Positions 7,734 to 54,498 are shown, counted from the stretch's first letter. The stretch is DNA of 64,000 bases from a bacterium (GCA_021824345.1 JAKAKW010000012.1:1491-65490), one strand, 5' to 3'. Notes: a model not told the origin generated them from the sequence alone. Translations and numbers: made by a program.

Positions 7734-7875
7734 CGGATCGCGCATGCCGAAGAATATTTCCTGAAAAAAGCCTTGGCAGGCGCGACGGCGCCGGACAGAG
7801 AAAATTTTCAGCGGAAAATTATGCGTGCTTTTCGAGAAGACCGACTTGTCCTCCGGCATGCTATACTCTCAGCAT

Positions 7876-8760
7876 ATGGACGACAAAAACGCCATTGAAC
7901 AAAAAATCAAGGACCTGGAAGCGCGGATGAACGCGCCCGATTTTTGGAGCGACAAGCAGAGGGCGCAGGAGGCGATCAGGGAGCTCTCCGAGCTCAAGGC
8001 CAAGAAAGAAGGCGCGGGCAAATACGACAAAGGAAGCGCCATCGTTACCATAATCTCCGGCGCGGGAGGCGACGACGCGGAAGATTTTTCCCGCATGCTT
8101 CTTGAAATGTACATGAAATACGCGGACAAGCGCGGATGGGGAATTTCTTTCATTCATCAGAACGAAAACGACTACGGCGGATATCGGAACGTGTCTTTTG
8201 AAATATCCGGCAAGGGCGCTTACGGCGACTTGAAGCATGAAAACGGAGTGCACCGGCTGGTGCGCATTTCTCCCTTCAACGCAAAAAAGCTCCGGCACAC
8301 CTCTTTTTCCCTGGTGGAAGTACTGCCTAAGTTTTCCAAGCTGGAAGAGCGCGATATTGTCATTCCCGAAAGCGACCTGAAAATTGAATATTCCCGCGCG
8401 GGAGGGCCGGGAGGGCAAAATGTGAACAAGCGGGAAACGGCGGTGCGCATAGTGCATATTCCCACCAATATTTCAGTGCACTCGGCGGAGGAGAGGAGCC
8501 AGGAGGCCAATCGGGAAAAGGCCATGAACATTCTGCGGGCCAAAATATTCAAAAAAGCGGAAGAGGAGAAAAAAAGCGTGGAAGAATCCATGCGTACGGC
8601 CAGAAACGCCGATATAGAATGGGGAAACCAGATCCGCTCGTATGTTTTACATCCTTATAAAATGGTCAAAGACCATCGCACCGGAGCGGAAACGGCGGAA
8701 GCGGAAGGGGTGCTTGCGGGGAATCTGGATCTCTTCATTGAAGCGGAAAAAAGTCTTTAG
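7876..8760 (+). CDS. prfB: Peptide chain release factor 2
   Basis: GGQ motif (AGGPGGQNVNK). SPF tripeptide (RISPFN) specific to RF2. N-terminus MDDKNAIEQKIKDLEARMNAPDFW. Single continuous frame with no programmed +1 frameshift site. The track's GTG start at 7825 is a possible alternative. Confidence 0.85.
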   Translation: MDDKNAIEQKIKDLEARMNAPDFWSDKQRAQEAIRELSELKAKKEGAGKYDKGSAIVTIISGAGGDDAEDFSRMLLEMYMKYADKRGWGISFIHQNENDYGGYRNVSFEISGKGAYGDLKHENGVHRLVRISPFNAKKLRHTSFSLVEVLPKFSKLEERDIVIPESDLKIEYSRAGGPGGQNVNKRETAVRIVHIPTNISVHSAEERSQEANREKAMNILRAKIFKKAEEEKKSVEESMRTARNADIEWGNQIRSYVLHPYKMVKDHRTGAETAEAEGVLAGNLDLFIEAEKSL

Positions 8761-19440: not shown

Positions 19441-20565
19441 TTAATTGCTAATACTATTATCAACTCCGACAGCTTCGCTTATATTCTTGAAACCGTCTTT
19501 TTTCAGGAGTTCGGCAAGCTCCTGATTTATTTCACTGATCAATTGCGGGCCCTCGAAAATCATCCCGGTAATCATTTCCACCAGGGAAGCGCCCAGGCGG
19601 ATTTTTTTATAAGCGTCCTGCGCGTTCCAAATTCCCCCCGAACCGATGAGGATGAATCTTTTTCCCGCCTTGCGGTAAACATACGAAAGCATTTGATTGG
19701 AGAGGCCTTCTACGGCTTTTCCGGATAAGCCGCCGCGCATGCCTCTATGGCCGGCAGAGATTGGCATTCTGCGCTTTGTGAGGTTTGTGCATATTATGCC
19801 GTCCACTTTGTGCGCTTCCGCGCACGCCAGAATGCCGTCCGTTTGTTCTTCGGAAATATCCGGAGAAAGCTTTAAGAATACCGGGCAGTGCCGCTTTTCT
19901 TTGTCCAAAGCCGAAAGCAAAACGTCCAAAAACTTAGGGTCGGAAAAAGGCTGTCCTCCTTCGGCGTTGGGGCAGGAAATATTTACGGCCAGGTAGCTTG
20001 CAAAAGGTTCCAGAGCGCGGAAAGCCAAGACGTAATCTTTTATCGCCTTTTCCGCGTCCAGATTTTCCGGACAGTTGGTCATGGCGATGCTCGCCCCTAT
20101 GGGAATTTCAAAATGTTTTCCCGCCAAGCGTTTTGCCACTTTTTCACAACCTTCGTTTTTCAGCCCGTAATGCACCACCAAGCTGCGCTCCTCCGGCAGC
20201 CTCCAAAGCCTGGGCTTGGGATTGCCCGCGCACTCCCGTCCGGTGACCGATCCGATTTCGGCAAAGCCGAAGCCTATTGCCGGAAGAATTCCGGTCAGTT
20301 TTCCGTCCTTGTCAAAGCCGGCGGAAAGCCCGACGGGATTCTTGAAATGAATTCCATGAAGATTTTGTTCCAAGGAAGGGTTTTGATAGTCAAAAAGCCC
20401 TTTCGCGATTTTTATTCCCAGCTTGTGGTTTCCAAGAAATATTCCCGTTTCCGTCATGCGGTCGTGCATACTCTCCGGATCCGCCCGAAAAAAAGCGGGT
20501 TTCAGAATTCCTTGATATATTCCGCGGGATATTTTGTTTCTGCTTCGCACAAGGCTATCCTTCAT
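19441..20565 (-). CDS. pyrD: Dihydroorotate dehydrogenase (quinone), class 2
   Basis: N-terminal membrane-association extension. Motifs LSAGFDKDGK, GFGFAEIGSVT, NISCPN. 374 aa. Confidence 0.8.
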   Translation of the reverse strand: MKDSLVRSRNKISRGIYQGILKPAFFRADPESMHDRMTETGIFLGNHKLGIKIAKGLFDYQNPSLEQNLHGIHFKNPVGLSAGFDKDGKLTGILPAIGFGFAEIGSVTGRECAGNPKPRLWRLPEERSLVVHYGLKNEGCEKVAKRLAGKHFEIPIGASIAMTNCPENLDAEKAIKDYVLAFRALEPFASYLAVNISCPNAEGGQPFSDPKFLDVLLSALDKEKRHCPVFLKLSPDISEEQTDGILACAEAHKVDGIICTNLTKRRMPISAGHRGMRGGLSGKAVEGLSNQMLSYVYRKAGKRFILIGSGGIWNAQDAYKKIRLGASLVEMITGMIFEGPQLISEINQELAELLKKDGFKNISEAVGVDNSISN

Positions 20566-28301: not shown

Positions 28302-28322
28302 GGCGGAGGGTAACCCTCCGCC
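28302..28322. repeat. Family-A palindromic element GGCGGAGGGTAACCCTCCGCC
   Basis: Perfect palindrome between the convergent GH18 gene and the membrane oxidoreductase. Confidence 0.6.
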
Positions 28323-28333
28323 ATGCTTTTGAG

Positions 28334-29863
28334 TTAGGCGAAGCCGGGGAAGAAATCTTTTTTCACGCGGGAATCGGATACCCCGATGTTTTTTAGCGCG
28401 TTTTCAAAGCCGGATACCATTGAATGGGATCCTGATACATAAAAAGTCCGTTCATCCAGGTCTGGAATTTCTTCCAATACCATTTCCGGATTTATTCTTC
28501 CTCTTCTGCCTTTCCAGCTTGCGGGAATGTTTTGAAGATCGGTCAAAACGTATACCGTGCGTATGCCGAGTTCGTCCCTGGCGCGATCCAGAACGTCCGC
28601 GTAGGCCACATCATCCGCCGTATTGTTGGCGTACATTATTACGATGTCCCGCTTCTCTTTCTTGTCCAGAAGATATTGGATCATGCTGCGGAAGGGAGTG
28701 ACCCCGATGCCGCCGGCCACGAAAACAAGTTTTTTCTTTTTGTTCTTGGGCAGGGTGAAATCTCCCGCGCGCTGGGAAGCGATTATTTCTTCTCCGGGGC
28801 GCAGAGCTATCAATCTTTTTTTGAAGCTGCTGGGTTTCGGATAGAATTTCACTCCTATGATTATGTCTTTCTCGGTAGGAGAAGAGGCGATGGTAAAATA
28901 TCGGCGATTGCCGCGGCTGTCCGCTCCGTCATCCGGCACGGTCCATTCTAAGTATTGCCCGGGGCGGAAATTTATCTTCCTGTTCGAGGCGAATTCAAAA
29001 TTGTACGTGTTGTTCGCCACCTTCCGCACTTTTTTCAGTTTTAAAATCAGTTTTTCTTTCGGGCTTACCAGGTACGAGAAAATGTTTCCAACAACCAAGG
29101 CAAGCTCCGGAGTGGAATATATCGATCCGATGTGCATCATCGGCGAAAACAAAAATCCCGTCAATATTCCGTAAATGATGCGCAGGCTCCTGGTGGGAGG
29201 AGTGGTCAGCGGTTCAGTCAGCATTACGGTGGCGAAGAAGAAAAGGGGAGTGGCCGACATTATGCGCCACACATTGGAGAACACGTCCGAACCGTTCATC
29301 ACGGCCGATCCCGCGATAACCAGGATCATGGTTGCGATGAAGCTAAGCACCAGATCGGAGCGCTGGATTTTTCGAGTAATAAGAAAACCGCCCAGAAGGG
29401 CGAAGGGAAGCATGTAAAGGGTGCCCACCCACCAGCTGGCGGATCCGCCGAAAGCAAAGGCCGTTATCGCCACAGATATGGCGGCCGGATTAAAAATATG
29501 CTTCTTGCCTATGGCAAAAATGTATTTTGAGGCCATGGAGAGCACGGAAGCCCAGAAGGCCAAAGGAAGGAAAACGGCGCTGTTGGCGGATGAAAAAGGA
29601 GTAATAATCAAGGCCAAAATCAGCGCGGTAATGTACGCTGATTCCACATTTGCCGGAACTTTGAACACTTTGGCAAAAACAATGTTTGTGATCAGGCAGA
29701 CGGCGGAAATAAAAAAGACGGAAAAAAGCACCGCCACGGGATTGTAAGGAAGAAGCCCGAAGGAAGAAAAAAGAACGGCCGTGAGCGCCAGTCCGAGCAG
29801 GACATACAGCACCAGGCGGTACATCGTTATTTTATTTAAAAAATTATCTACCAGCTCAAGCAT
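28334..29863 (-). CDS. Polytopic membrane protein with C-terminal ferredoxin-NADP-reductase-like FAD/NAD-binding domain
   Basis: About 260 aa of TM helices, then an FNR-like module (RPGQYLEW...RYFTIASSP; LVFVAGGIGVTPF). Confidence 0.6.
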   Translation of the reverse strand: MLELVDNFLNKITMYRLVLYVLLGLALTAVLFSSFGLLPYNPVAVLFSVFFISAVCLITNIVFAKVFKVPANVESAYITALILALIITPFSSANSAVFLPLAFWASVLSMASKYIFAIGKKHIFNPAAISVAITAFAFGGSASWWVGTLYMLPFALLGGFLITRKIQRSDLVLSFIATMILVIAGSAVMNGSDVFSNVWRIMSATPLFFFATVMLTEPLTTPPTRSLRIIYGILTGFLFSPMMHIGSIYSTPELALVVGNIFSYLVSPKEKLILKLKKVRKVANNTYNFEFASNRKINFRPGQYLEWTVPDDGADSRGNRRYFTIASSPTEKDIIIGVKFYPKPSSFKKRLIALRPGEEIIASQRAGDFTLPKNKKKKLVFVAGGIGVTPFRSMIQYLLDKKEKRDIVIMYANNTADDVAYADVLDRARDELGIRTVYVLTDLQNIPASWKGRRGRINPEMVLEEIPDLDERTFYVSGSHSMVSGFENALKNIGVSDSRVKKDFFPGFA

Positions 29864-29865
29864 GA

Positions 29866-30756
29866 TTAGTTGCGTCGGCGGCCGGTACTCGAGAACTTTC
29901 CTCTCGGGGCCTGCCCCTGGCCCGCTTCGCCCAGCGCCGCCTCTCGCGCCGCCGCGTTGCTAGAGGCGGCGCTGGAAAATGTTTCCGGACTCCGGTCGTT
30001 GTTTGAAAATTTTTCGAAATTGCTGGTGAACGTGGCTATGCCTCGGCGGTCTACCATGTATCCTTCAAACCCTTTCAATTTTTCCAGGAAATAAATTCCG
30101 AAAGGTCCCATGGCAAAAGCGGCGGTGGCAAAGCGATCCGCTTCATAAGCGTCCGGGCCGATTACCGTGACGCTCACTATTTCCGAAAGCGAATCATCTC
30201 TTTTTTGGGGATTATATATGTGCGATCCTCTGGCATAAGTGCCGGAAGTGGCCATTCCGTTTTTTCCGGTGTCTCCGCCCAAAGAGACCACTTTAATGAT
30301 TTCCTTTTCCGGGCTGAACGGATTGCGAATGCCGATTTTCCACGGTTCGCCTTTTTGATTCACTCCGCGGGCCTCAATGTCTCCGCCGGCATTTATGTAA
30401 AAATTATCGTATCCGTCTCCGGAAAGAATATCGGCTGCGGTTTTAATGGCCCATCCTTTGACTATGCCCGAAGGATCCAGCTTTCCATCCGAGGCGCGGA
30501 TGTCGAAATATCCGCTCGTCTCTTTCCTTGTTTTCTCGGCCAGGGAGAGCACCGCCAGCATGTCCGGACTGTATTCGGATTCTTTTATTTCCCCCCGGTT
30601 GATCCGGCTGATCTCGCTTTCCTTTTTGTATGTGCTGAATTTCCCGTCTACGTAAGCGAAATGCCCGAAGACCTTTGCAAGGGCGTCCTTATGCTTCCGC
30701 CGATCGGCGATTTCCACGGAAATGTTCATGCCCATTATTGTTCGCGTCAATTTCAT
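29866..30756 (-). CDS. apbE: FAD:protein FMN transferase (ApbE family)
   Basis: TIMGMNISVEI N-terminal motif. Conserved GGD and SGTYARG regions. Low-complexity C-terminal tail. Confidence 0.8.
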   Translation of the reverse strand: MKLTRTIMGMNISVEIADRRKHKDALAKVFGHFAYVDGKFSTYKKESEISRINRGEIKESEYSPDMLAVLSLAEKTRKETSGYFDIRASDGKLDPSGIVKGWAIKTAADILSGDGYDNFYINAGGDIEARGVNQKGEPWKIGIRNPFSPEKEIIKVVSLGGDTGKNGMATSGTYARGSHIYNPQKRDDSLSEIVSVTVIGPDAYEADRFATAAFAMGPFGIYFLEKLKGFEGYMVDRRGIATFTSNFEKFSNNDRSPETFSSAASSNAAAREAALGEAGQGQAPRGKFSSTGRRRN

Positions 30757-30768
30757 GGATTGTTTATG

Positions 30769-31377
30769 CTATCCGTTCAAGGCCTGAGTCAAAGCGGAAG
30801 AAAGAGACTGCCGGAATGCTCCGCTTGAATCAGTGGCCCCGGAAACGGTGTTTACATTCGCGCTCTGCGCGGCGACGGCTTCGGATTTAAGATACGGCAT
30901 GGCGTAACTGTTGATGAAGCGGGAAGTGCTGCGGTCGTTCGGGTATTGCAGAAATTGCACATCGACTAATTTTCCGCCTTGGATTACCGCTTCAACCTGT
31001 ATATTGCCGTAATAAGCGTCGGCTACCGGGCCTATGAAAGCGCCGTCCTTGTATTTTGACATCATTCCGGACATCCCGGATCGCCCCATGGAATTTCCGC
31101 CGGCCATGCCTTGCCCGACGGACGATGATCTTCCGGAGAACCCGTTGCCCGATCCGCTTCCGGAAGAGACGGAATTGGCGGTTTGCGCTTGAACTTGATA
31201 GGCGGACCTTCCTTTGGAAGACTGGCCTGCGGGAGCCGGAATGAAGGGCTGGGCGCTGGACGCGATCTGAGCCGAGGAGGAAGAAGGATTTCCGATATTC
31301 TGATACAGAATGTAAAATCCGAAAGTTCCGACAACCAGTATGGATAAAATGTATTTCTTTTTCATTATTTTGAACAC
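30769..31377 (-). CDS. Membrane-anchored FMN-binding domain protein (probable flavinylation target)
   Basis: N-terminal TM helix, Ser/Gly-rich linker, then an FMN_bind domain with the flavinylation motif TVSGATDSS (the threonine that ApbE enzymes typically modify). Confidence 0.7.
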   Translation of the reverse strand: MFKIMKKKYILSILVVGTFGFYILYQNIGNPSSSSAQIASSAQPFIPAPAGQSSKGRSAYQVQAQTANSVSSGSGSGNGFSGRSSSVGQGMAGGNSMGRSGMSGMMSKYKDGAFIGPVADAYYGNIQVEAVIQGGKLVDVQFLQYPNDRSTSRFINSYAMPYLKSEAVAAQSANVNTVSGATDSSGAFRQSLSSALTQALNG

Positions 31378-31452
31378 AAGGCGGGAAAAAGAGCTAAATT
31401 TCCCGCCTTGCGCTTATATATACGAGCGTATTCTATTTTTATTTCATCCAGC

Positions 31453-32157
31453 TTAGAATTTTCCTACGCCGTGCGCTTCTATGACGGAAGGATCGGACAT
31501 GGAACCGAAAACATACACCCGTTCACCGACTTCGAAAGCCGGAGATCCCGGAGGCAGAATCACAATGTGCGTGCCTTCGTCCTTGTCGCTGTCCTTATCA
31601 TCGTGTCGAATGGTTATGCGGTCGGGCTGTACCGCGGACACTATTCCGCGGAAGATTCCGGATTCCGAGTGGGAATTGTGAATGCTCTCGTATGTGTCGC
31701 CGATTATGGGCAGTTCGCCTCGGTCCGCCATGCGCAAGAGAGATCCGTGCAGGGGAGTGAAATTTGCCGCGAGGCCCAGCAAACTTGAAGCGATGAAAAT
31801 AGCGAGAAAGACCGAAAGCAGAGAAACGCGATAGCCTATCTTCCAGCCCTGCAGAAGCCATTCTAGAAGAGTCAATATCAGCACATCCAGAGCAAGCAGG
31901 GTCCAAGGGAAGAGAGACAAAAAGGTGAGAATGCCGCGGCTGCCGAAGCCCAGCAGAAATTGCTCTCCGCTTTCATGAATACTGAACAATATGAAGCTGA
32001 CGACAAATACTGAAACGGCCAGAGCGACAAGGGCGACAAGGATGGTGATGGCAAGCCGGAAAACAAAATACGACTGCGACCGCGCCCGCACCGCGCCCGA
32101 GCGCACCTTTTGGAGCACTTCATCCTTTATATTTTTTTCTAATTTTTCTTCATTCAT
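31453..32157 (-). CDS. Putative membrane anti-sigma factor
   Basis: Overlaps the stop of the ECF sigma gene by 8 nt. N-terminal cytoplasmic segment followed by TM helices. Confidence 0.45.
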   Translation of the reverse strand: MNEEKLEKNIKDEVLQKVRSGAVRARSQSYFVFRLAITILVALVALAVSVFVVSFILFSIHESGEQFLLGFGSRGILTFLSLFPWTLLALDVLILTLLEWLLQGWKIGYRVSLLSVFLAIFIASSLLGLAANFTPLHGSLLRMADRGELPIIGDTYESIHNSHSESGIFRGIVSAVQPDRITIRHDDKDSDKDEGTHIVILPPGSPAFEVGERVYVFGSMSDPSVIEAHGVGKF

Positions 32158-32731
32158 AATAATCTTTCGGGATTTTCTTTTTCAGCGCTTCCCTGGCGCG
32201 GGAAAGACGAATTCCCACCGTGCCGACCGGCAGGTGCAGAATGTCCGCAATTTCCTTATAACTGAAATTCTCAAAATAGTACAGGTCGATTATTTCCCGA
32301 TAGGCCGGCGGAAGATTTTTTATTTCCTTATTCAATAATACGCCCATTTCCTCTTTTTCTTTCCTGTCCACCGGTTCTTCCTCTTCGTGCAAAACATGCG
32401 GGATGATCCTGTTCCAGTCAAAAACCGGTATAGGTTCTTTGGTTTTTTTGCGCAGAACGTCCACGAAAGCGTTGTGGGCGATGCGGTATATCCACGGGGA
32501 GAACCTCCGGACCGCGTCGAAATCCCCGATGTTTCGGTACACGGTTATGAAAATGTCTTGCACCGCGTCTCCGATGTTGTCTTCGTAGGGCAGAAGCTTT
32601 TTGCCATACCTGATCATTTTTCCGGTATAGCGATCCATAAGTTCGGCGAAGGCTCCTTCGTCTCCTTTTTGCGCTCGCACTGCAAGCTCTTCATCTGTGG
32701 GGAATTCCGGCATAAAAGATACATTATACAC
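32150..32731 (-). CDS. ECF-subfamily RNA polymerase sigma-70 factor
   Basis: Region 2 (DAVQDIFITVY, RIAHNAFVD) and region 4 helix-turn-helix (SYKEIADILHLPVGTVGIRLSRAR). Confidence 0.8.
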   Translation of the reverse strand: MYNVSFMPEFPTDEELAVRAQKGDEGAFAELMDRYTGKMIRYGKKLLPYEDNIGDAVQDIFITVYRNIGDFDAVRRFSPWIYRIAHNAFVDVLRKKTKEPIPVFDWNRIIPHVLHEEEEPVDRKEKEEMGVLLNKEIKNLPPAYREIIDLYYFENFSYKEIADILHLPVGTVGIRLSRAREALKKKIPKDYYE

Positions 32732-32765
32732 TACATGAGGCCGACAGCATGGTCCGGGCTCTCGA

Positions 32766-32789
32766 GGGGCGGAGGGTTACCCCCGCCCC
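32766..32789. repeat. Family-A palindromic element variant GGGGCGGAGGGTTACCCCCGCCCC
   Basis: Between the ABC permease stop and the sigma factor start. Confidence 0.5.
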
Positions 32790-32816
32790 CTAGACGCCTT
32801 CAGCATATGTGGCGCG

Positions 32817-42950: not shown

Positions 42951-44258
42951 TTAATCAGTGAGAACTTTTCGTTCTATTTCATCAAAACTGTAACCTGTCG
43001 TGAAATGATCTTCAAAATTCTGCATTGCCGGTTCGCCGACATATTCTTTTCGGCGGGACGCATAATGCATGGCTAATGCCATTTCTTCAGGAACGCCTAC
43101 GCAGTCAAGCGGTTTGAATCCTTCAATGCCGAGAATCCGCCGAAAAAGCGGCAAGAGTTTCGTATGGGTGTATAGATCAGCGCCGAATATATCTACCACT
43201 TCCTCTCTTGGAAGAAAGGCCGAAAAACAGGCAAAGAGGAACACGCATTTCGGGCACCGCTTGCACCAATATCCTTTCTTTAAAAGAAGTTGCGTGGGAC
43301 GCGGAAGCCAGAAATATGTATTACAGCTTGTAACATAGCGCAGATATTTTGGATACTTCACAAAACGTCGCACTATTTCCAGCTCGCTGTACTTTCGCAA
43401 GGGCGATATCGTCTTGATGTCGGGCGTTATAAAAGTTTGAATGTAATCGTTCGTCATCTGTTCTGCCTCGGATGATTTACACCACTGATGGTTCACCGGA
43501 AGTCCCAGGTAGGTAAGATTTCCGAAATCGGCGCTGCGCTCATTGGAAAATACGATTGAATCATATCCCAAGAGTTCTGCGAGCAACACCGCGATAAAAG
43601 TAAAAGTGGAGACCGATGGGTATGCGCTGGATATTCCAAAAAGAGACATGGCCATCTCAAGATACGGATCGCGGCGGCGGCTGACCCGGATATTTTTTGC
43701 TCCCACCAATTTGGCGATGCGCTTGTGGGCCGGCGTCGGAGCGAAGGCAAAGTAATCAAATGGCGTGCTTGATGCCTTTAATATTTCGGCGGACAGAATG
43801 GAATCTTTGCCTGCGCCGTTTAAAAGAAGCGATCGCGCGGGTAACTTTAATCGTGCCGGCTCGGGGATCGTAGCAGAGGCATTATACGGAAACTCAATAA
43901 GGTTATGGAAATCCATCTTCATGTCGTAGAAGAACTCTCCAAGCCCGTTCAGGTAGAGCGAATTCCAGAATTGCGCCTGTTCGCGCGAAAGGGTAAATCC
44001 TTCAATGTGAATGTTCTTAGTCGGGAAGACGCACCAATAGTTGATGCCAAGCATTAGTAGAAGCGCTTGAAGTGTTGGTTTTAGCGCTTCTTCCGGCACA
44101 TTTTTCCAGGACTCGCGCGGCACGTCTTCCAGAAATATGCGGTCGGTGAAAGTTTTAGTTATTCCAATCTTAAATTTCACGCGATAGGTAAAAGCGATGC
44201 TTGAATGAGCAGTGTCTATTTTATATGAGCCGAAAGTAAAAGATGAAACGCGCGGCAT
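42951..44258 (-). CDS. QueC-like PP-loop ATPase with ~150-aa N-terminal extension
   Basis: PP-loop-like LLLNGAGKDS. C-terminal zinc cluster TSCNTY...WCKRCPKC resembles the QueC motif T.TCYNG...GCGHCAAC. 435 aa. Confidence 0.5.
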   Translation of the reverse strand: MPRVSSFTFGSYKIDTAHSSIAFTYRVKFKIGITKTFTDRIFLEDVPRESWKNVPEEALKPTLQALLLMLGINYWCVFPTKNIHIEGFTLSREQAQFWNSLYLNGLGEFFYDMKMDFHNLIEFPYNASATIPEPARLKLPARSLLLNGAGKDSILSAEILKASSTPFDYFAFAPTPAHKRIAKLVGAKNIRVSRRRDPYLEMAMSLFGISSAYPSVSTFTFIAVLLAELLGYDSIVFSNERSADFGNLTYLGLPVNHQWCKSSEAEQMTNDYIQTFITPDIKTISPLRKYSELEIVRRFVKYPKYLRYVTSCNTYFWLPRPTQLLLKKGYWCKRCPKCVFLFACFSAFLPREEVVDIFGADLYTHTKLLPLFRRILGIEGFKPLDCVGVPEEMALAMHYASRRKEYVGEPAMQNFEDHFTTGYSFDEIERKVLTD

Positions 44259-44314
44259 TTCTATATGGTATCACAATTACGAACCTTAACGTTCTTCTGA
44301 GTGGCGTTATAAAT

Positions 44315-44902
44315 TTATTGGTTGTTAATACGGCTATGATAACCAAGTTCTAAATCTTTTAGTAGTCGAGAAAAAGATGCTTCATTATCTCCCTCCCATG
44401 CATACCAAGTTATAAAGTTACCTCCATGTGATTTACTTATTATATTTAACACTTTTTGAACAACCGAGAAAATTTTTTCTATTTCTAAAGTATATATTTT
44501 CTCTTGTTGTGGGTTTTTGGGTTCATGCGCTGTAATGTTGTGTCGAAGAGTTTTAATTCTTTTTATCTCTTCTTGGATAGTGCTCAAGTGATAATTTGCC
44601 TCTCTTATATCATTAGAAGGTAGATTTTGTATTAAGGTTTGCAATTTGAGACTATCTTTTGGTTTATCGAAGAATTTATAAAGATCAGTAATGAAAGCAT
44701 TTTCAGTTGCATATAAAACACCACTAAAAATTCCACCATACCGGTTAAGGATACTGGCACGTCTATTTACTTCCTCTTTACCAACTTCCGGTATTGAAAG
44801 TGATTTACGGATATACTTCCAGATTTGAAAGCAACCATATGCACGATTCATTCTATGTACCAGCTTCCCAAAATCAGTTGTGGTGTCTATGTTAATCTCC
44901 AT
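44315..44902 (-). CDS. Hypothetical protein with HEPN-like R-x5-H motif (possible abortive-infection/RNase)
   Basis: LRHNITAHEP. AT-rich gene. 195 aa. Confidence 0.4.
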   Translation of the reverse strand: MEINIDTTTDFGKLVHRMNRAYGCFQIWKYIRKSLSIPEVGKEEVNRRASILNRYGGIFSGVLYATENAFITDLYKFFDKPKDSLKLQTLIQNLPSNDIREANYHLSTIQEEIKRIKTLRHNITAHEPKNPQQEKIYTLEIEKIFSVVQKVLNIISKSHGGNFITWYAWEGDNEASFSRLLKDLELGYHSRINNQ

Positions 44903-44928
44903 GTTTTAATTAATGAGCCCTTGGATAC

Positions 44929-45396
44929 CTACATTTTAAGATGAGCCCATCTAATCCAGTTACCCAGGAACCTACCTGATAAGTCGACAAGAGTTAAATC
45001 TTTTCCATTTACGGGACTCTTTTGTCCATGAAAAAGATTACATCTTATTTGGTATATAAAATCAACTACCTGACTAAAATCGGAAGTATCTTTTAGTTCT
45101 TTATATTCTCCGCGGTGATTAGGGCGCATGTCCTCAATGCGCGGATACTGCATCAGTCCTTGTAAGTCTGATGTGTCGAATTCTTTATCTATAAATAATT
45201 GTTTAAGTGAATTATCTGAATTTTTCAGCCAATCAATTTTTTGAGTATCACTATCTGCTTCAGATTCTGAAACCATATACGCATCTAGGCACATGTAATA
45301 GATGAAAAATCGAACGAACGGATCCAAATTATCTTTGGAAAGTTTCTTTTCTCTTAGAATCCACCAGTCGACTATATTTTTGAGGTTTTCATTCAT
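44929..45396 (-). CDS. HEPN-domain protein (R-x4-HG motif)
   Basis: IRCNLFHGQKS near the C-terminus of a 155-aa, helix-rich protein. Confidence 0.5.
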   Translation of the reverse strand: MNENLKNIVDWWILREKKLSKDNLDPFVRFFIYYMCLDAYMVSESEADSDTQKIDWLKNSDNSLKQLFIDKEFDTSDLQGLMQYPRIEDMRPNHRGEYKELKDTSDFSQVVDFIYQIRCNLFHGQKSPVNGKDLTLVDLSGRFLGNWIRWAHLKM

Positions 45397-45410
45397 AGCT
45401 GATATTGACG

Positions 45411-45478
45411 CTCCTCGGACTCCGAAAGCGTCTCAAACTGGCTGGCATTATGGCACGAAGTTAGAACTCGGAAGCCTT
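45411..45478. repeat. ~70-nt island repeat element, full copy 1
   Basis: TTGACGCTCCTCGGACTCCGAAAGCGTCTCAAACTGGCTGGCATTATGGCACGAAGTTAGAACTCGG. About 82% identical to the copy at 50917-50983. Confidence 0.6.
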
Positions 45479-45480
45479 AA

Positions 45481-46062
45481 TTAATCAAAAGAATTAACCA
45501 CATCGGGCAGTTCAAGACAAGCATCTTCACTATCAAAAGCCCCTGAAAAATGTTTAGCATTATGTTTTATTATTAATTCCGCGCTTAACTTTTCTTTCAG
45601 TATATTCCCATGTTCTAACGGAACGTAAGGGTCGTTATCGGAATGGATTAAAACGAATTTATTTGCCTTATTTCTTATCTTTTCAAATTCAAAGTCTTTG
45701 ACAAAGAAATTTTTCAATTCATCAAAGCCTAAATTATTCACAAACCCGGCGACAAGAACGACGGTTCCCACCTTTTCATTTTCATCAAGAGACTCCAGAT
45801 ACCTAAGTATCGTCACACTGCCGGCGCTGTGTCCAATGAGGTTGATGTCCTCGTTTGGTTCGCCGACCGCTTCTTTTAAAACCGGCAACCACTTTTCTAA
45901 ATTAGGATTTTCTGTATCGGGAAAGCTAAGAACATCTACTTCATATCCCTTTTTCTCCAATTCTCTTTTCGCATAAGGGTACCAGCAATATTCCGGATAA
46001 CCTCCCCAGCAGTGAGCGATGATAGCCTTTTTCATATTTTTATTATACAAAACATGGGTCAA
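45481..46062 (-). CDS. Alpha/beta hydrolase, YdeN/RBBP9-like serine hydrolase
   Basis: Nucleophile elbow IGHSAGS. 193 aa. Confidence 0.6.
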   Translation of the reverse strand: MTHVLYNKNMKKAIIAHCWGGYPEYCWYPYAKRELEKKGYEVDVLSFPDTENPNLEKWLPVLKEAVGEPNEDINLIGHSAGSVTILRYLESLDENEKVGTVVLVAGFVNNLGFDELKNFFVKDFEFEKIRNKANKFVLIHSDNDPYVPLEHGNILKEKLSAELIIKHNAKHFSGAFDSEDACLELPDVVNSFD

Positions 46063-46083
46063 AATTACGAGATGATCTTATGG

Positions 46084-46103
46084 CGCGAAGTTGGAACTTT
46101 TTT
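46084..46103. repeat. Island repeat element, 3'-portion copy (TATGGCGCGAAGTTGGAACT)
   Basis: Matches the 3' third of the full copies. Confidence 0.45.
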
Positions 46104-46357
46104 AGCTAATAATTCTTTAAGTTTTTTTAAATCCATCTCTGTTCGGAAATGAAGAATATTCCCTGAAAATGAGATATATCAGCGATCCATCGTTACAATC
46201 ACAAGTGAATTCATTCCGTCCTCAAAATGTCCGCCCAATTTGCTCTTTTGGTGATGTAGGAATACAATTCAGTTAACAATGATCGCATGTAATGAAAGAA
46301 ACCCTGTATAAGATGGAAAATATAGTCGAGAAAGGAATGCCAACTTAGGTCGAAACT

Positions 46358-49300
46358 ATGCACGAGACATCCGACAGGAAAATAATTCTGGCGACCGAGA
46401 GAAATGACACGTCTCATGAACTGAGAGGACACTTCAATCGGGACACATATCTAAAAACCGTAGAGCGCGCACTTGAGCGTGCCGAGACAAAAGAGAAAAT
46501 CATTGCGGTCATACGCGACGCAATCCGCGGACAGGCGGGACGAAAGGATCTTGAGGAACTCTTCGCATCAATCCGGTTCACATCGGATAAGAGCGACGAG
46601 GAGCGCTTTATCACCACCGACCGCTACATCACGATGGAGCTCGACGAGATTGAAGAATCACTTGCCGATCCAGACACGCGCGCCGAGTTCGACCGGATGT
46701 CCTTTGACGAATTCAAGAATGAGACACGGGAAGAGGTTGGCAGTCTTGTCGCACCAGAACTCAAGGACGCAGGCGCACCAGAACTTACACGGGTACTTAA
46801 GTATGTCGGCGAACGGCTGATCGTGCCCGACTACAATGTATCGGAGCTTATTGGGTTCATAAACGACTACTGCACCATCGCGCCGGGAAGAGAAGTGATT
46901 GTAGATCGGTGCGTATTCGGCGCAGATCCGAAAGAAAAGAATAATTTGTTCAGCGCGCGTAGCGATCTTAAGGAAATCCTCGAAGATCCCGAAACGTGCG
47001 AGAAGATAGACATTATCATATCCAGCAATCTCATCGAGCGATTCACATTCTCCGCCGGTCTGTCGCATTCGACGGATAAATCGGATTCAGATATGCGACT
47101 GTTCTTGAATGCGGTGTTGATTGAGAGCCTTAAACTTGCCGCGCACAACGAATATCTGACGATCACGTCCAAAGATCGGATCTACGCGCACGCTGTCAAT
47201 AGGATCACTGAAAAACGGCTCGCGGATATCCATGCGTTTGACTCCACCCTTACCACGATCGACCTGGACAATCTCCGCGATTTCCAAATACTGGAAGGTC
47301 TGCCTGAAGCAGGCCGTGCGTTCTGCAAGAAGATCTATGAAGCAACCGGGCTCGCGGGCACCGGCGCTTTCAACCGGATCGGTATCAGCTATTTCTCCGA
47401 CGCACTTGCCGACCCGGAAAAGTTTCGCAAGCTCGAACTCGCGTATGACCTTGGTGCGATCAGCGGTTTTACCTCTTCCTACGAAGGTGATCTGACGAAA
47501 AGAATTTTCACCTGGAGCGATGAACAGATTAAGAGCGTCGCCATGGGCTTCAAGACCGGCCTCGTGAAGGGGCCTTCGGATGGACGCGCCATCGCGCGGA
47601 TTCTCACCCTAAATACCGATGACCTCCTCTCTCTCAACGAAGCCGGGGAGACACTCTTGGTCGGCAATGAACTGCTCAATGCGCTCCGCGCATCGAGCCC
47701 CGAAGACCGCGCAGAGTATAAAAGCATCCTCGCTTCGATCGAGGGAAACCAATGGGTTAAGGAGGAGAAAAAAATGGAACTCCTACGGTATGCTGAAGAA
47801 CTCCGCACACTCACCCCGGACGCCCGTGCATTCCTCGATGCATGGCACGCGCACCAAGGACAATTCTACAGTAGCCAGGTTGAAGCGTACACCGAACCAC
47901 TCAAGAAAGCGAGCCTCTATCCCGATGTCCTCGCCCGCATGGCCGATCGGTACCGCGACCTGGACAACCAGAAGCTTATGTTCAATCTGCTCTCGGACGG
48001 ATATATGGACCTCATAGACATCGACCGCGAGCTCTCCGCGTTCGCGCGGGATCCCAACGCCTACCTCCTCAAATTTCCTCGCCCGTCCGATGTCTTCGAT
48101 CATTTTCGCGAGTTCGAAGACATTATGAATCGCCGCAATCAACCCATGCGCGACGATGTTCACAAAACAATTTTTTTCAGCACGTTCGTCGCGCAGGCCA
48201 CGACCCGCATATCGAATAATGTGGATTTCCCTTACACTACCGACGAGCGCCACGTTTCAGAACTCGCGGGGCGCCTCGCTTCTTGGTACGCCAGCGCGTA
48301 TGATGCGCAGGAAATTCTTTCCACGATCGTCCACATGCACGACGATCTTGCAGACGTCACGTCGGTGCTCGAGCGCATCACGGATGACCCGGATTCCTTT
48401 TTTAAACAGCGCCCGCAGGACGTGATGAAGAATTACGACGCAATCGCGGCGGAACTTGCGAGCCGCGGCAAACGTCTCCACCAGACTACGCTCGACGTGG
48501 CATTCGAGAACACCTTGCGCATGAACCCCGCTCTCCTCATGCGGGAAACCGAGTTTCCATTCACGTCGGAACAGCAAACGATCGCGGACCTCTTCCAGCG
48601 TATTCACAAGTCCCCGTCCCACGAGATAAAGAACATGGACGTCGAGATCGCTGAACAGATCGCTCGGAACGGCGATCTCTCCACCTATGAGGACCGCTAC
48701 CGCGTGATCGAAGAGATCTTCGTCAAGAATAATCTTCCATTTGTCGGCAAGCAAGAGAAGGTCTGCGAGGTGCTGCACCCTGAGATCGAGACGCGGGAAA
48801 ATTCCAGCCCGGTTCTCCAATCCCTCCACGGCACAAACGCGCGGAGGCTACTCGTCTTCAAGGATCTGATGCGCGCAAGCGTACAGAGCCTCAATATGAA
48901 CCTAGAGCAGTATCTCCTAGTCCTTAAGAATGGCGCTACAGTCCTTGACCGATTCGAATCCGGAGCAACGCTCGACGACGACGAAACAGAACAGTTGAAA
49001 TATTTCTTCCGAAAGATAAACGCTCTTACCGAGAACACGCGATTGAACGCGAATGCCACGACCTTTGATCCCGATCGGACGAGTCTCGCCGAGAACCTCG
49101 CCGCACTTCGAAAGAATTTCGGTGTACGCAAGGGGGAAACGATTACCGACAAGTTCACTCGGACGTTCCTGCGGCGGATCGACATCAACTCCATTGATGA
49201 CGCGCTTAGGCAGTTCATCAATCTGCGGAGCGTCGCAGACACGCGCAACCGTGAATTCGCATCATCCGGAAAAATTATTCTCAGTCCGACGGATCTCGCG

Positions 49301-50725
49301 AAAGGCGTCGACTCCGCCTTCTTCGACACCTTCCTCGACCGCGGCGTCTATTCCCCAGAGTTCATCGGCGCAGAAACGGAAGTCGCGAAAGCAAAGGCGA
49401 AGCGAACCGACATGACCCCATGGGACACCGACGTGATCACTGTCGGAGACCGCGATGCGCGCGTGATCGTAGAAGACTCAACGGCTAGCGCATACGGCGA
49501 CGTTATCATAATCGTCCGCGATCGCGGCCAATTCGACCATACCAAGGTCGGCCAACCGCTCCCTGCCGACTCGGGCAAAATGGAACTCTTCAGAACGGGC
49601 GGGACGAACAGCGACCACTTTGGAATCCGCACAGGGTTCGGCTCCACGGAGATCAGCGCGCTTCTCGTGAAGGATAAGATTGCAACGGATGATCGTGCAC
49701 TCTCCGAAATAAAATTCTCAATCGCGAAGAAGGGTTTCTACATCCCCGTCTGCGATAAATCGGGGCGCGTGCTCTTTTCGAGTAATGAATTTGAAACATA
49801 CCGCGCTATCTTCCGTGGCATCGACCGCTACCACGGGGACCCGATCGCTGTGGATGAAACATGGCGCGAATCCCTCTTCCGTGAGGACATCGAATCCGTC
49901 GCACAGACAGAAGGGAATTTGGAAAAGCTCCAAGTGCTCCGCGCCGGGCTCTACGCCGATCTGGCGCACGACCTTAAGGGCAACGGGATCACTCTGCACC
50001 AGGAACGCTATGACGACAGCGTCGTCGGCGCACGGATCGTTGACACCGGCTCGACGGGCCGCGGTGCCGCGCTTGACGAGGGATACGACTTCGACTTTGT
50101 CGTGAAGCTCGACGACGTCGACTTCAACAAGGTTCCCGCCATTACCAATACACTCGAATCCAAATATCCCCTCAACACGAGTTACGAACGCAACGGCATG
50201 CACACGTTCCGCTTTAAGAATTTCGAGCGCGACGGCGAGACGATCAGCCTCGATATCAGCTTCATAAAGAAATCCGACAGCGAAGAACTAGACGCAAATG
50301 AGGCTGTCACGCAGAAATATAATTCGATCCGAAACAAGAGCGGCGAAAAGGCGTGGCTCGACACGCTGACGAACGTGCGCTTCGCAAAACGCGAACTGAA
50401 ACGCGCGGAATGTTATAAGAAAGGAATGGCGGGAGTAGGAGAACAGCAAGGGGGGCTTGGCGGTATCGGCGTGGAGAACTGGATACTCAAGTACGGTGGC
50501 AATGCGATAAAAGCGTTCCGCGACTTCCACGACCACGCATACCGCGAGGGCACGCTCGTGCCGTTCGCAGAATTCAAACAGACTTATCACGTGTTCAGTG
50601 CGGGAGAGAATGTCCGGGGTGGCGTGCGGGCCGAGGATTTCGTCGCACATATGGACGAAACAGGATACCGCAAAATGGCGGAGCTTTCCCGAAAGTTCGT
50701 TCTATCGGAAGCTGACTTGCTCTGA
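46358..50725 (+). CDS. Giant (1455 aa) protein with C-terminal Pol-beta-superfamily nucleotidyltransferase motif; visibly GC-rich relative to neighbours
   Basis: An uninterrupted 4.37-kb ORF with an in-frame stop 4 codons upstream of the ATG. Near-C-terminal GSTGRGAALDEGYDFDFVV (hG[GS]-x9-13-DhD nucleotidyltransferase signature, as in GlnE/GlnD, cGAS/DncV-like and MNT enzymes) followed by GGLGGIGVENWIL. The remaining ~1150 aa have no motif I recognise. The flanks are AT-rich. Confidence 0.6.
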   Translation: MHETSDRKIILATERNDTSHELRGHFNRDTYLKTVERALERAETKEKIIAVIRDAIRGQAGRKDLEELFASIRFTSDKSDEERFITTDRYITMELDEIEESLADPDTRAEFDRMSFDEFKNETREEVGSLVAPELKDAGAPELTRVLKYVGERLIVPDYNVSELIGFINDYCTIAPGREVIVDRCVFGADPKEKNNLFSARSDLKEILEDPETCEKIDIIISSNLIERFTFSAGLSHSTDKSDSDMRLFLNAVLIESLKLAAHNEYLTITSKDRIYAHAVNRITEKRLADIHAFDSTLTTIDLDNLRDFQILEGLPEAGRAFCKKIYEATGLAGTGAFNRIGISYFSDALADPEKFRKLELAYDLGAISGFTSSYEGDLTKRIFTWSDEQIKSVAMGFKTGLVKGPSDGRAIARILTLNTDDLLSLNEAGETLLVGNELLNALRASSPEDRAEYKSILASIEGNQWVKEEKKMELLRYAEELRTLTPDARAFLDAWHAHQGQFYSSQVEAYTEPLKKASLYPDVLARMADRYRDLDNQKLMFNLLSDGYMDLIDIDRELSAFARDPNAYLLKFPRPSDVFDHFREFEDIMNRRNQPMRDDVHKTIFFSTFVAQATTRISNNVDFPYTTDERHVSELAGRLASWYASAYDAQEILSTIVHMHDDLADVTSVLERITDDPDSFFKQRPQDVMKNYDAIAAELASRGKRLHQTTLDVAFENTLRMNPALLMRETEFPFTSEQQTIADLFQRIHKSPSHEIKNMDVEIAEQIARNGDLSTYEDRYRVIEEIFVKNNLPFVGKQEKVCEVLHPEIETRENSSPVLQSLHGTNARRLLVFKDLMRASVQSLNMNLEQYLLVLKNGATVLDRFESGATLDDDETEQLKYFFRKINALTENTRLNANATTFDPDRTSLAENLAALRKNFGVRKGETITDKFTRTFLRRIDINSIDDALRQFINLRSVADTRNREFASSGKIILSPTDLAKGVDSAFFDTFLDRGVYSPEFIGAETEVAKAKAKRTDMTPWDTDVITVGDRDARVIVEDSTASAYGDVIIIVRDRGQFDHTKVGQPLPADSGKMELFRTGGTNSDHFGIRTGFGSTEISALLVKDKIATDDRALSEIKFSIAKKGFYIPVCDKSGRVLFSSNEFETYRAIFRGIDRYHGDPIAVDETWRESLFREDIESVAQTEGNLEKLQVLRAGLYADLAHDLKGNGITLHQERYDDSVVGARIVDTGSTGRGAALDEGYDFDFVVKLDDVDFNKVPAITNTLESKYPLNTSYERNGMHTFRFKNFERDGETISLDISFIKKSDSEELDANEAVTQKYNSIRNKSGEKAWLDTLTNVRFAKRELKRAECYKKGMAGVGEQQGGLGGIGVENWILKYGGNAIKAFRDFHDHAYREGTLVPFAEFKQTYHVFSAGENVRGGVRAEDFVAHMDETGYRKMAELSRKFVLSEADLL

Positions 50726-50854
50726 CCCACATCGGCATATGCTAACACTGTATAAGAAGTGATCGTAGGAAGATCCGACAGGCAAACTATGCCAATCATC
50801 AAATTCGAACCAATTTTGCGTTGAAAATTATACTCGTTTTTCTTCCGTCATTTT

Positions 50855-50872
50855 GACGCTCCTCGGAACGAT
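50855..50872. repeat. Island repeat element, internally deleted mini-copy (TTGACGCTCCTCGGAACG...)
   Basis: 5' 15 nt of the element joined to a tail (GGAACGATTTTAGCT) resembling the 46084 copy's tail (GGAACTTTTTTAGCT). Confidence 0.4.
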
Positions 50873-50916
50873 TTTAGCTGTTTCAAATATCCTTGCAGGG
50901 CTTGATGCTCCTCGGA

Positions 50917-50983
50917 GTCCGAACGCGCCTCAAGCTGGCTGGCCGTATGGTATGAAGTTGGAACTGTGGTTGCTTAAAATCTT
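50917..50983. repeat. ~70-nt island repeat element, full copy 2
   Basis: TTGATGCTCCTCGGAGTCCGAACGCGCCTCAAGCTGGCTGGCCGTATGGTATGAAGTTGGAACTGTGG. Confidence 0.6.
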
Positions 50984-50989
50984 AAACGA

Positions 50990-52141
50990 TCAACTGTTTG
51001 TAGAAATTTTATTGATAAACCTCCTTGCTCTTTCATCAGGAGACGTTTTATCTACTTTCGGTTCCCAAGCTTTATATACTTCCAAAATTCCTGTATAAAT
51101 AGCATTGCCTGTTGTTATAAAGCGGTGTTGAAGTAACAACACTGCATTGCTTTCAACTAAAAAAATAAAACCAGGTTTTACACAATTTAACGATAAATGG
51201 TCAATAGTTCCTGAGTTTATAATTCTACGAGAGAATTCTTCAAGAGTGTCCAATAAGGGAATGAGGTTTTCTGAATGTGCTCTAGAAAAAGAATAAAGTC
51301 TGTGTTGTCCGTCAATGATCCAACAAGCGCTGTAGCTATTTTTAATAGTCAAAGTGCCGACTTCTGAGTGATTTTTCGACTCTAATCCTGAAATTTTCAC
51401 GAAATTCTTATCTCCTTCCTTTAGCGAAATAATCACATTTGTCGGAAAAATCCCTCCATTATCAAGGAATTGTTGGATTTTTCTTATACGATTTTTATCC
51501 AACATTCTTTGGTAAAAATCTTCTTTTTGTGATCTTCTTCGTGCAACATAAGAAAATTTTAGTAATTCTTTTGGATTTGCGTAAAAACTATATGTTACGT
51601 ATTTTCCTATCTTTGTTTTTAAAGCGGCAACATTTAATTGTTCGTTTTCTGGCGGCCGAATTCCATAATCAGCAAGGAAATTAAAAACTGCGTATTCTCC
51701 TATTTTTTCGTAAAGCTCACTGTAATATTCTAGAAGATTTTCATCAGCATACCAGAAATGAGTTTCTTTGAATAATTCTTTTTCTGATTCAGGAATCTCA
51801 ATTTTTTTTGTTATGAAAATAAATTTGACAAATTTACATTGGGAATATTCTGGAATAGTTTTGTATCCTTCTAGAACCATTCTGGCTCTTTCTTTGGTAG
51901 CTAATATATCTTGGCGAAGATTTTTTTTGACTTTTCTGCCTGCTGCTTTACATTCAAAAACGAATAATATATCCTTGTATCTTCCACAAGCGTCAATCTG
52001 ATTCTTTTCTCCATTAGGCGCTATATGAAAATCTTGTCCCCCTTTTACATCAGAAAACTTTAGTTTTTCTTCTAAAAAAATTTTTACCTCGTTTTCAAAA
52101 TCTTTTCCGTAATCTTTTTTTTCTAATTCAATTTCTTCCAT
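50990..52141 (-). CDS. DGQHR-domain protein (DndB/DpdB-like, ParB/Srx-fold)
   Basis: Exact DGQHR motif in ACWIIDGQHRLYSF. 383 aa, AT-rich. Confidence 0.7.
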   Translation of the reverse strand: MEEIELEKKDYGKDFENEVKIFLEEKLKFSDVKGGQDFHIAPNGEKNQIDACGRYKDILFVFECKAAGRKVKKNLRQDILATKERARMVLEGYKTIPEYSQCKFVKFIFITKKIEIPESEKELFKETHFWYADENLLEYYSELYEKIGEYAVFNFLADYGIRPPENEQLNVAALKTKIGKYVTYSFYANPKELLKFSYVARRRSQKEDFYQRMLDKNRIRKIQQFLDNGGIFPTNVIISLKEGDKNFVKISGLESKNHSEVGTLTIKNSYSACWIIDGQHRLYSFSRAHSENLIPLLDTLEEFSRRIINSGTIDHLSLNCVKPGFIFLVESNAVLLLQHRFITTGNAIYTGILEVYKAWEPKVDKTSPDERARRFINKISTNS

Positions 52142-52896: not shown

Positions 52897-52900
52897 TGTA

Positions 52901-53506: not shown

Positions 53507-53524
53507 AGTTCTTTATATGTCATG

Positions 53525-54451: not shown

Positions 54452-54498
54452 ATAATAAAATATAAAGCCTCTCGGTCACCTGACTTGTCATAAGACTG

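Follow-up and report, generated by a model that had tools for sequence, protein, structure and literature searches.

Bacteria of the candidate phyla radiation (CPR, Patescibacteria) are considered to depend strictly on fermentation and to have hardly any redox machinery in their membranes. The published flavinylation survey, as its text has it, found CPR strikingly poor in extracytosolic flavinylation (PMC8238504). The same survey defined the NQR/RNF-like system as flavinylation gene clusters with a fusion of PF03116 and PF00175 (Meheust et al., 2021, eLife, PMC8238504, Fig. 4E), and its text names members from CPR and predicts that they move electrons from NAD(P)H to extracytosolic FMN. In the model of a Ktedonobacter complex presented in Fig. 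4C-G of Huang et al. (2024, mSystems, PMC11334425), the membrane subunit is devoid of the flavinylated Thr of NqrB/RnfD, and the flavinylation site of the outer subunit docks by the flavin pocket of the former.

Here, we analyzed a 64,000-nt stretch of bacterial DNA (GCA_021824345.1 JAKAKW010000012.1:1491-65490, hereafter the window) with three close-packed open reading frames (ORFs) on its minus strand at positions 28334-31377, which the original prediction, made from the sequence alone, had delimited exactly. They encode an FMN_bind protein (F), an ApbE flavin transferase (A) and a fusion protein (R), with domain calls (PF04205, PF02424, PF03116, and PF00175) that are all above the Pfam gathering thresholds. 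Because the membrane component of R is an NqrB/RnfD homologue, the locus was placed in the NQR/RNF-like class. Indeed, R is a fusion of the defining type, the FMN_bind and ApbE genes are co-localized directly upstream on the same strand, and the membrane half has an RnfD fold without the flavinylated Thr. The locus is real and was rightly described at the domain level, and it is an ordinary CPR member of an already published class. It probably represents a complete NQR/RNF-like flavinylation system, namely a two-subunit transmembrane electron conduit (F and R) with its maturation enzyme (A). Not stated in the text of the two papers are the leaderless ApbE of CPR, the recurrence of an extracytoplasmic function (ECF) sigma factor and a partner as neighbours, and a family size far above the 127 genomes that the survey text gives for NQR/RNF-like systems (PMC8238504).

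Architecture and conservation of the three genes

Residues 146-266 of R matched PF03116 (NQR2_RnfD_RnfE) with 37.1 bits (cutoff 27.7). When a profile made from 20 family members was compared with all PDB sequences, it retrieved only RnfD (8ahx_D, E=6e-4), with NqrB weaker. AlphaFold2 modelled full-length R with a predicted local distance difference test score (pLDDT) of 88 and a predicted template modelling score (pTM) of 0.84. With a model of residues 1-272 (pLDDT 80), the top 15 Foldseek matches in the PDB were all RnfD or NqrB (probability 1.00, TMq 0.53-0.74). The next matches were urea and ammonium (Amt) channels, which are known structural relatives of the RnfD/NqrB fold (PMC12174285). 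From the model helices and a Lys/Arg tally, we predicted 10 transmembrane (TM) helices, with the N-terminus, the C-terminus and the FNR domain in the cytoplasm. The Lys/Arg-rich cytoplasmic loops are at residues 67-72, 116-125, and 164-168, and the junction at 267-285 has 7 Lys/Arg.

The loop that carries the flavinylated Thr in NqrB and RnfD is missing from R, which has no [ST]GA[ST] motif at all. In the alignments, an outer loop of approximately 8 residues (GGSASWW) stands for residues ~137-205 of RnfD and for ~55 residues of NqrB, including Thr236. The segment MSATPL (residues 200-205) was considered as an RnfD-type flavinylation site and rejected, as it aligns to a non-flavinylated segment of RnfD. 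The membrane domain has 42 invariant positions (alignment A2), and residues invariant in the R family include A142, W144, and W145 in the outer loop as well as H122, N125, P126, E217, P218, T220, and P222. The three residues of the outer loop are candidates for stacking the outer flavin of F.

In the cytoplasmic half of R, residues 381-485 matched PF00175 (NAD_binding_1) with 63.8 bits (cutoff 22), and FAD_binding_6 was slightly below threshold (19.8 vs 21.1). NCBIfam matches were to the flavohaemoprotein, Fre, and NqrF reductase domains, and Foldseek returned GcoB, NqrF, Fre, cytochrome b5 reductase (b5R), and flavohaemoglobin reductase domains. Residues R320, R321, G384-G387, T389, and P390 were invariant. 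The best PDB sequence match was 2eix, and since the nucleotide motifs resemble those of NADH-cytochrome b5 reductase, the donor is probably NADH.

F matched PF04205 (FMN_bind) with 28.2 bits (cutoff 22) and consists of a single FMN_bind domain with a TM anchor; it is not a two-domain lipoprotein. The hydrophobic segment that follows its MKKK start has 17 residues and could be taken for either a signal peptide or a TM anchor. From this arrangement, the N-terminus is predicted to be inside and the FMN domain outside the membrane. The same design of MKK and a hydrophobic segment was common to the 45 F orthologues of a genome set of related loci (see below), and was also seen in the replicate metagenome set. 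A low-complexity linker of ~95 aa rich in Ser, Gly, and Met (window 31060-31290, minus strand) separates the anchor from the FMN_bind domain. The predicted FMN-phosphoryl acceptor within the TVSGATDSS motif is Thr178 (numbering of the 198-aa form). The orthologues, with a total length of 134-293 aa, carry V[DN]xVSGA[TS]xTS, with 29 SGAT, 14 SGAS, and 1 TGAT in the genome set and 28, 4, and 3, respectively, in the metagenome set.

A matched PF02424 with 149.8 bits (E=1e-43). Compared with E. coli ApbE (4xgw), it keeps TSGTY, SHIYNP with the catalytic His, and EAD, the Mg2+/FAD motifs being likewise intact, and has a deletion of ~50 aa. No signal peptide, lipobox, or TM segment was found in A, whose maximal Kyte-Doolittle hydropathy over 15 aa was 1.43. 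The longest possible ORF begins at the catalytic core (MKLTRTIMGMNISVEI), 12 nt past the F stop codon, with no upstream extension. ApbE was also leaderless in 49 orthologues of the genome set and 45 of the metagenome set, which start with MK.TR.IMGMP..VEI, have a median length of ~249 aa, and begin 10-30 nt after the F gene. The 45-aa C-terminal tail of A (aa 252-296; window 29866-30000, minus strand) is of low complexity, rich in Ala, Ser, Gly, and Arg, and missing from relatives outside its own 90% cluster.

These results bear out much of the original prediction. The ApbE flavin transferase and the membrane-anchored flavinylation target were both recognized correctly, and the FMN domain was predicted to face outward, as had been supposed. 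The FNR-like domain of the polytopic protein was confirmed by PF00175, but the ferric-reductase families suggested for it were not applicable (PF08022 is absent), and the NqrB/RnfD identity of its membrane half had been missed. The proposed compact module from NAD(P)H to an extracytoplasmic flavin agrees with what has been published for NQR/RNF-like systems.

The genes are separated by 12 nt (F-A) and 2 nt (A-R), and their stop codons (TAG, TAA, and TAA) are ordinary. With these gaps and stops, there was no sign of a split fusion. Stop-codon recoding or an in-frame polyprotein was also rejected, the ApbE and R genes being out of frame. F could alternatively start at a GTG at 31377 (202 aa, 30769-31377); on the near-identical NCBI contig L062, the gene is called as 198 aa. 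Coordinates are collected in Table 1.

Table 1. Features of the F-A-R locus and its flanks, with positions counted along the window.
Feature	Position	Strand	Remarks
F, FMN_bind subunit, NqrC/RnfG-like ApbE substrate	30769..31365	-	198 aa, ATG at 31365; PF04205
N-terminal signal-anchor of F, MKKK then YILSILVVGTFGFYILY	31303..31353	-	From hydropathy and Lys/Arg distribution
Flavinylation motif TVSGATDSS of F	30823..30849	-	Residues 173-181 (198-aa form), near C-terminus; read from sequence
A, ApbE FAD:protein FMN transferase	29866..30756	-	296 aa; PF02424
R, RnfD/NqrB-like and FNR fusion	28334-29863	-	509 aa
NqrB/RnfD-like membrane domain of R, aa 1-268	29060..29863	-	PF03116; 10 TM helices
Short outer loop SASWW of R, aa 141-145, TM5-TM6	29429..29443	-	Within outward loop 139-151
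FNR-type FAD/NAD(P)H domain of R, aa 272-509, cytoplasmic	28337..29050	-	PF00175; RRYFTIAS flavin motif, GGIGVTP nucleotide motif
ECF sigma factor, directly upstream, same strand	32150..32731	-	Sigma70_r2 and r4_2; best NCBIfam SigW-type NF007223, E=7e-38, below cutoff
Multi-pass membrane protein (fam7), putative anti-sigma partner	31453..32157	-	Overlaps sigma gene by 8 nt; weak DUF5818 match only
Promoter-like element TGAAAT-N16-CGTATA	31419..31446	-	Only strict match in the 64-kb window, 0.42 expected
Stem-loop of 16 bp, leader directly before F start codon	31373..31414	-	RNA fold dG -26.9 kcal/mol
GC-rich hairpin between R end and convergent GH18 gene	28302..28322	.	Terminator-like on + strand; without U-tract on - strand

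Two independent scans both returned close relatives only (41-61% identity). The genome scan gave 60 loci, all from Patescibacteria metagenome-assembled genomes and including Nomura-, Staskawicz-, Doudna-, Magasanik-, Taylor-, and Zambryskibacteria, Paceibacterota, and Minisyncoccia. In the metagenome scan, 574 of 600 checked pattern matches were confirmed, with more in existence, and 80 loci were kept. Contiguous F-A-R on one strand was found in 40 of the 54 informative genome loci. In an overlap-free ORF analysis, F lay directly upstream of R in 49/56 genome and 50/61 metagenome loci, and ApbE lay between them in 37 loci of each set. The cluster is conserved well beyond chance, and the conservation of the three-gene unit on which the original prediction had been staked was thus seen in both sets. 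A divergent sub-family (L039, L048-L055; loci are numbered with L) keeps the triad with an ApbE that is only 24-33% identical and an FMN_bind-like protein that was missed by Pfam (hhalign probability 96%, E=1.6e-9; motif VSGSSLT).

Searching a library of 1.84 billion representatives with the membrane domain of R yielded 387 clusters (50% identity) at E<1e-30 and 802 at E<1e-10, the best matches being mostly fusions of ~500 aa. Few membrane redox modules are as common in CPR as the NQR/RNF-like one; with these 387 clusters and more than 574 metagenome loci, it is not the noteworthy capacity for a reduced genome that had been supposed. According to the text of the survey, its pipeline accepted a cluster only with a PF03116 match and one or more predicted signal peptides (PMC8238504). 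As a precomputed PF03116 match was missing in approximately one third of close homologues, and a signal peptide was needed, the published count is probably too low for CPR; many members are without the one or the other, or without both. Four GC-rich relatives (L114, L121, L126, and L140; GC 62-65%) have the RnfD-FNR fusion (~509 aa from the true start) with no FMN_bind or ApbE gene nearby. Between 50 nt and ~2.4 kb from the fusion gene, they encode a cupredoxin that is small, secreted, and marked by a CuA-like C-x3-C-x3-H-x2-M motif. This form may be a flavinylation-independent variant.

Proposed electron path, flavinylation, and alternative readings

By way of the trio, electrons from intracellular NAD(P)H probably reach a flavin protein at the outer face of the membrane. 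In the path that we propose, NAD(P)H, probably NADH, would reduce a flavin on the FNR domain of R, and electrons would move to an inner flavin site in the RnfD-like domain, where Rnf and Nqr hold a riboflavin near the cytoplasmic face. They would then reach an outer flavin pocket and, finally, an extracytoplasmic acceptor. Since R has lost its own flavinylated Thr loop, we propose that F fills the outer pocket in trans, with the FMN bound covalently to its Thr178. For maturation, ApbE would use FAD to put this FMN in place, and F would be held at the outer face by its anchor and flexible linker. In Rnf, electrons pass from FMN(RnfG) to FMN(RnfD), to riboflavin(RnfD, ~8 Å away, near the cytoplasmic face), to RnfC, and to NAD+ (PMC12174285). 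The trio would amount to the RnfC-RnfD-RnfG branch working outward from NADH, RnfC having given way to an FNR domain.

Several points weigh against this path. No member of the system has been characterized biochemically, and we infer its cofactors, donor specificity, direction, and acceptor. The flavin motif of R is R-Y-F-T and not the usual R-x-Y-S; as it resembles that of Fre, for which flavin is a substrate and not a bound cofactor, the first flavin of R may be bound FAD or an exchangeable flavin. There was no conserved acceptor gene beside the unit, the flanking genes being highly variable across the related loci. The strict form of the promoter-like element upstream of F did not replicate in the independent metagenome set (0/41). 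Lastly, ApbE has no export signal here and in ~90 relatives, while the only canonical substrate motif is predicted to be outside.

Among possible acceptor genes, MsrA, MsrB, and DoxX were rejected as conserved partners, with just 9, 9, and 6 of the 60 genome loci and 1, 1, and 2 of the 80 metagenome loci, and so was a cupredoxin, which was adjacent in few loci only. In two loci (L011:7562-8029 and L027:4140-4670), N-terminally anchored type-1 copper cupredoxins (YYCSxGSHRxMGM) adjoin F-A-R on the same strand, in a sigma-fam15-fam16 block. In the lineages concerned, these proteins are candidates for an extracytoplasmic acceptor of electrons.

The leaderless ApbE is odd when set against an outward-facing substrate and complicates the extracytoplasmic flavinylation of the original prediction, of which the outward orientation of F stood. 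Characterized ApbEs for outward-facing substrates are secreted lipoproteins, and in Salmonella an ApbE expressed in the cytosol failed to replace the periplasmic enzyme (PMC12052999). The text of the two papers from the Light laboratory (PMC8238504, PMC11334425) makes no comment on leaderless ApbE. We rank modification before or during export ahead of a second, secreted ApbE encoded elsewhere, and the latter ahead of an inward-facing F, none of them with high confidence. With modification before or during export, a cytoplasmic ApbE would act on the C-terminal SGAT of F before or while the chain is threaded through Sec, and the flavinylated chain would be exported; electrons would still leave the cell and no FAD export would be needed. 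The motif lies ~20 residues from the C-terminus, the leaderless ApbE starts at the catalytic core in all relatives examined, and ApbE accepts tags down to 7 residues, prefers terminal tags, and works in the cytoplasm if expressed there (PMC12052999). In addition, no flavin exporter gene was found in the window, but these 64 kb are what the search covered, and an FAD exporter or a second, secreted ApbE could be elsewhere in the genome. There is no precedent for an FMN-modified chain passing Sec, and with the Salmonella result also against it, we consider this route unlikely. Still less likely is a trio that is not extracytoplasmic at all, in which the FMN_bind domain of F would stay and be flavinylated inside, serving R or another partner there. 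Such an arrangement would suit the predicted cytoplasmic ApbE, and cytosolic pairs of ApbE and FMN_bind exist, as in the fumarate reductase of Klebsiella (PMC12052999). However, nearly all of the 45 + 41 F orthologues have a strong N-in signal-anchor (MKK/MKKK), NqrC and RnfG with the same anchor design are periplasmic, the multimer model shown in PMC11334425 places F at the outer face, and a 10-helix RnfD-like domain would have no obvious use. Where and when flavinylation happens is a testable question posed by the steady absence of an export signal from ApbE.

Two other readings concern what the membrane protein does. Electron flow through the RnfD/NqrB-like domain could be coupled to Na+ or H+ translocation, so that CPR cells would build up a membrane potential by a minimal redox-driven ion pump rather than a respiratory chain. 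For Nqr, it has been proposed that reduction of its FMN triggers NqrB to bind and translocate Na+ (PMC12174285), and both the kinship of the R fold with Amt and urea channels and the many invariant positions of its membrane domain would fit a pump. On the other hand, R lacks the loop that holds the covalent FMN in the D/B subunit, and the coupling subunits (RnfA/E or NqrD/E with their intramembrane 2Fe-2S cluster) are missing too. Among essentially all window ORFs of 100 aa or more, no other Rnf/Nqr subunit (RnfA/E, NqrD/E, RnfB/C, or NqrA/F) was found, nor was there one beside the unit in 140 related loci, and we regard a pump as highly improbable. If true, it would be a minimal NADH:acceptor oxidoreductase that energizes the membrane in organisms believed to have no respiratory chain. 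The original prediction had likened the locus to the PplA/FmnB type of flavin-based extracellular electron transfer (FLEET) known from Listeria, with which it has an ApbE and an outward FMN_bind protein in common, as it has an FNR fold in common with the dehydrogenase domains of NOX/FRE haem ferric reductases. Pfam searches of essentially all window ORFs of at least 100 aa found no gene for NDH-2 (Pyr_redox-type), EetA/EetB, or the synthesis of quinones. A two-domain PplA lipoprotein was likewise missing from the window, where F has a TM anchor and a single domain. The ApbE is non-secreted, neither PF01794 nor PF08022 was found, PF08030 stayed below threshold (17.9 bits, cutoff 22.2), and the membrane domain folds as RnfD/NqrB. 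The likening to PplA/FmnB was therefore refuted, and we give either of these assignments almost no credence.

As to the role of the proposed outward conduit, the window also encodes enolase, phosphoglycerate mutase, a D-2-hydroxyacid dehydrogenase, NrdD/NrdG, and PPDK. From enolase, the 2-hydroxyacid dehydrogenase, NrdD/NrdG, and PPDK, the host appears to be an anaerobic fermenter, for which NAD+ regeneration by electron export would be a plausible benefit. The trio would likely serve to get rid of reducing equivalents and so regenerate NAD+, to reduce an oxidant in the envelope or outside the cell, or to do both. If so, the locus and its hundreds of relatives would represent a compact NAD(P)H-to-outside flavin conduit that is widespread in CPR, and the module is a good candidate for the disposal of reducing equivalents or for redox dealings with hosts, minerals, and oxidants. 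With three genes only, it is also appealing as a minimal model of one half, RnfD/NqrB, of the Rnf and Nqr pumps. Elsewhere in the window (19441-20565, minus strand), we found a class-2, quinone-dependent dihydroorotate dehydrogenase (NF003652, 348 bits, cutoff 267; TIGR01036, 289 bits, cutoff 200). In an apparent CPR genome expected to be without a respiratory chain or quinone synthesis, this enzyme implies some membrane quinone or other acceptor pool.

Neighbouring genes and other features of the window

Orthologues of the ECF sigma factor encoded upstream of the trio (fam3 among our gene families) were found in 15/60 genome and 7/80 metagenome loci. The order sigma-partner-(small secreted protein)-F-A-R recurred in L043, L048, L050, L051, L055, L066, L078, L087, and L094. 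In one sub-family (L043, L048-L051, and L055), these genes belong to a same-strand block (in L048, sigma-fam7-fam13-F'-A-R-MsrA-MsrB-DoxX) with leaderless MsrA and MsrB, with DoxX and, in some, a Clp-like AAA+ protein; it looks like an oxidative-damage regulon. The sigma factor with its partner, and MsrA, MsrB, and DoxX in some lineages, hint at a lineage-restricted link to envelope or oxidative stress.

The promoter-like element upstream of F has a sequence that we take to resemble the sigma-W consensus. In the genome set, the region upstream of F was enriched in related motifs (7/53 vs 7/641, p=2e-5), a loose motif was weakly enriched in the metagenome set (3/41 vs 6/528, p=0.02), and the element was present in 1 of 12 sigma-fam7 loci. 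An ECF promoter driving F-A-R is thus a weak, lineage-restricted lead, and for most relatives it is simpler to assume that F-A-R is transcribed together with the sigma operon. Upstream of the sigma gene (window 32732-32816, minus strand), a GC-rich hairpin (GGGGGCGGGGG-TAA-CCCTCCGCCCC) follows genes for a MacB/FtsX-type ABC transporter, and an extended -10-like TGTATAAT precedes the sigma start codon by ~15 nt. There was no ECF-type motif in 32732-32816, and hence no sign there of sigma autoregulation.

The stem-loop in the leader of F was more stable than expected (z = -6.5), with 0 of 200 shuffles equally stable; having no U-tract after it, it is not a canonical terminator. No riboswitch or known RNA was found in this leader, an Rfam search of the window giving two tRNAs only.

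Other regions of the window stood out. A low-GC stretch at ~44000-55000 (GC 0.36-0.42 vs ~0.50 elsewhere) contains genes for an AbiU2-type HEPN protein (44315-44902) and a DndB-like protein (50990-52141), a 1455-aa ORF without a Pfam match (46358-50725), and a tRNA (54499-54569), and is possibly a defence or mobile island. A Bro-N domain protein of phage or mobile-element type (4614-5612, plus strand) overlaps or abuts a tRNA at 4568-4638, and the 4 kb before its gene have a high GC of 0.55-0.58 and ORFs without Pfam matches; this may be an integrated element. A release-factor ORF of 311 aa (PCRF and RF-1; 7825-8760, plus strand) has a PCRF match that begins at profile position 95. Its N-terminal part may lie in another frame; no classical RF2 frameshift site (CTTTGAC) was found near this ORF.

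Comparison with known redox systems

Several known systems bear a likeness to the trio. Listeria FLEET (Ndh2, EetA/B, PplA, and FmnB) also has an ApbE-dependent, outward-facing FMN_bind protein that hands electrons to the outside. It differs in its route through NDH-2, quinone, and EetAB, which is not in the locus, in its two-domain lipoprotein PplA vs the single-domain, TM-anchored F, and in that the ApbE of the locus is leaderless. With the Fre-MsrQ and bacterial NOX-type systems, the locus shares an FNR/Fre-type NAD(P)H reductase that feeds a membrane protein delivering electrons outside, and some of its relatives neighbour Msr genes. In those systems, however, the conduit is a di-haem ferric-reductase, whereas that of the locus is a flavin-based RnfD fold, and the MsrA and MsrB that neighbour its relatives have no export signals.

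The kinship is closer with the ion-pumping complexes. Like Na+-NQR (PDB 7xk3, 8a1t), the locus has an NqrB-like fold, an NqrC-like subunit, and, by Foldseek, an NqrF-like FAD/NADH domain. It has no NqrA, NqrD, or NqrE, its reductase has no 2Fe-2S domain, and R has neither an equivalent of Thr236 nor the N-terminal amphipathic helices that form the quinone site of NqrB. With the RnfC-RnfD-RnfG branch of Rnf (PDB 8ahx, 7zc6, 9eri), it shares an RnfD-fold subunit, an ApbE-flavinylated, RnfG-like outer FMN subunit, and a cytoplasmic site for a nicotinamide nucleotide. It is without RnfA, RnfE, RnfB, and RnfC, and a fused FNR domain takes the place of the NuoF-like Fe-S protein RnfC. Moreover, the covalent FMN loop of RnfD is deleted in R, and electron flow, which is semicircular in Rnf, would presumably be one-way and outward in the locus. 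From the NQR/RNF-like system, in contrast, the locus shows no architectural difference: both have a PF03116/PF00175 fusion beside FMN_bind and ApbE genes, a membrane subunit without the flavinylated Thr, and a home in CPR.

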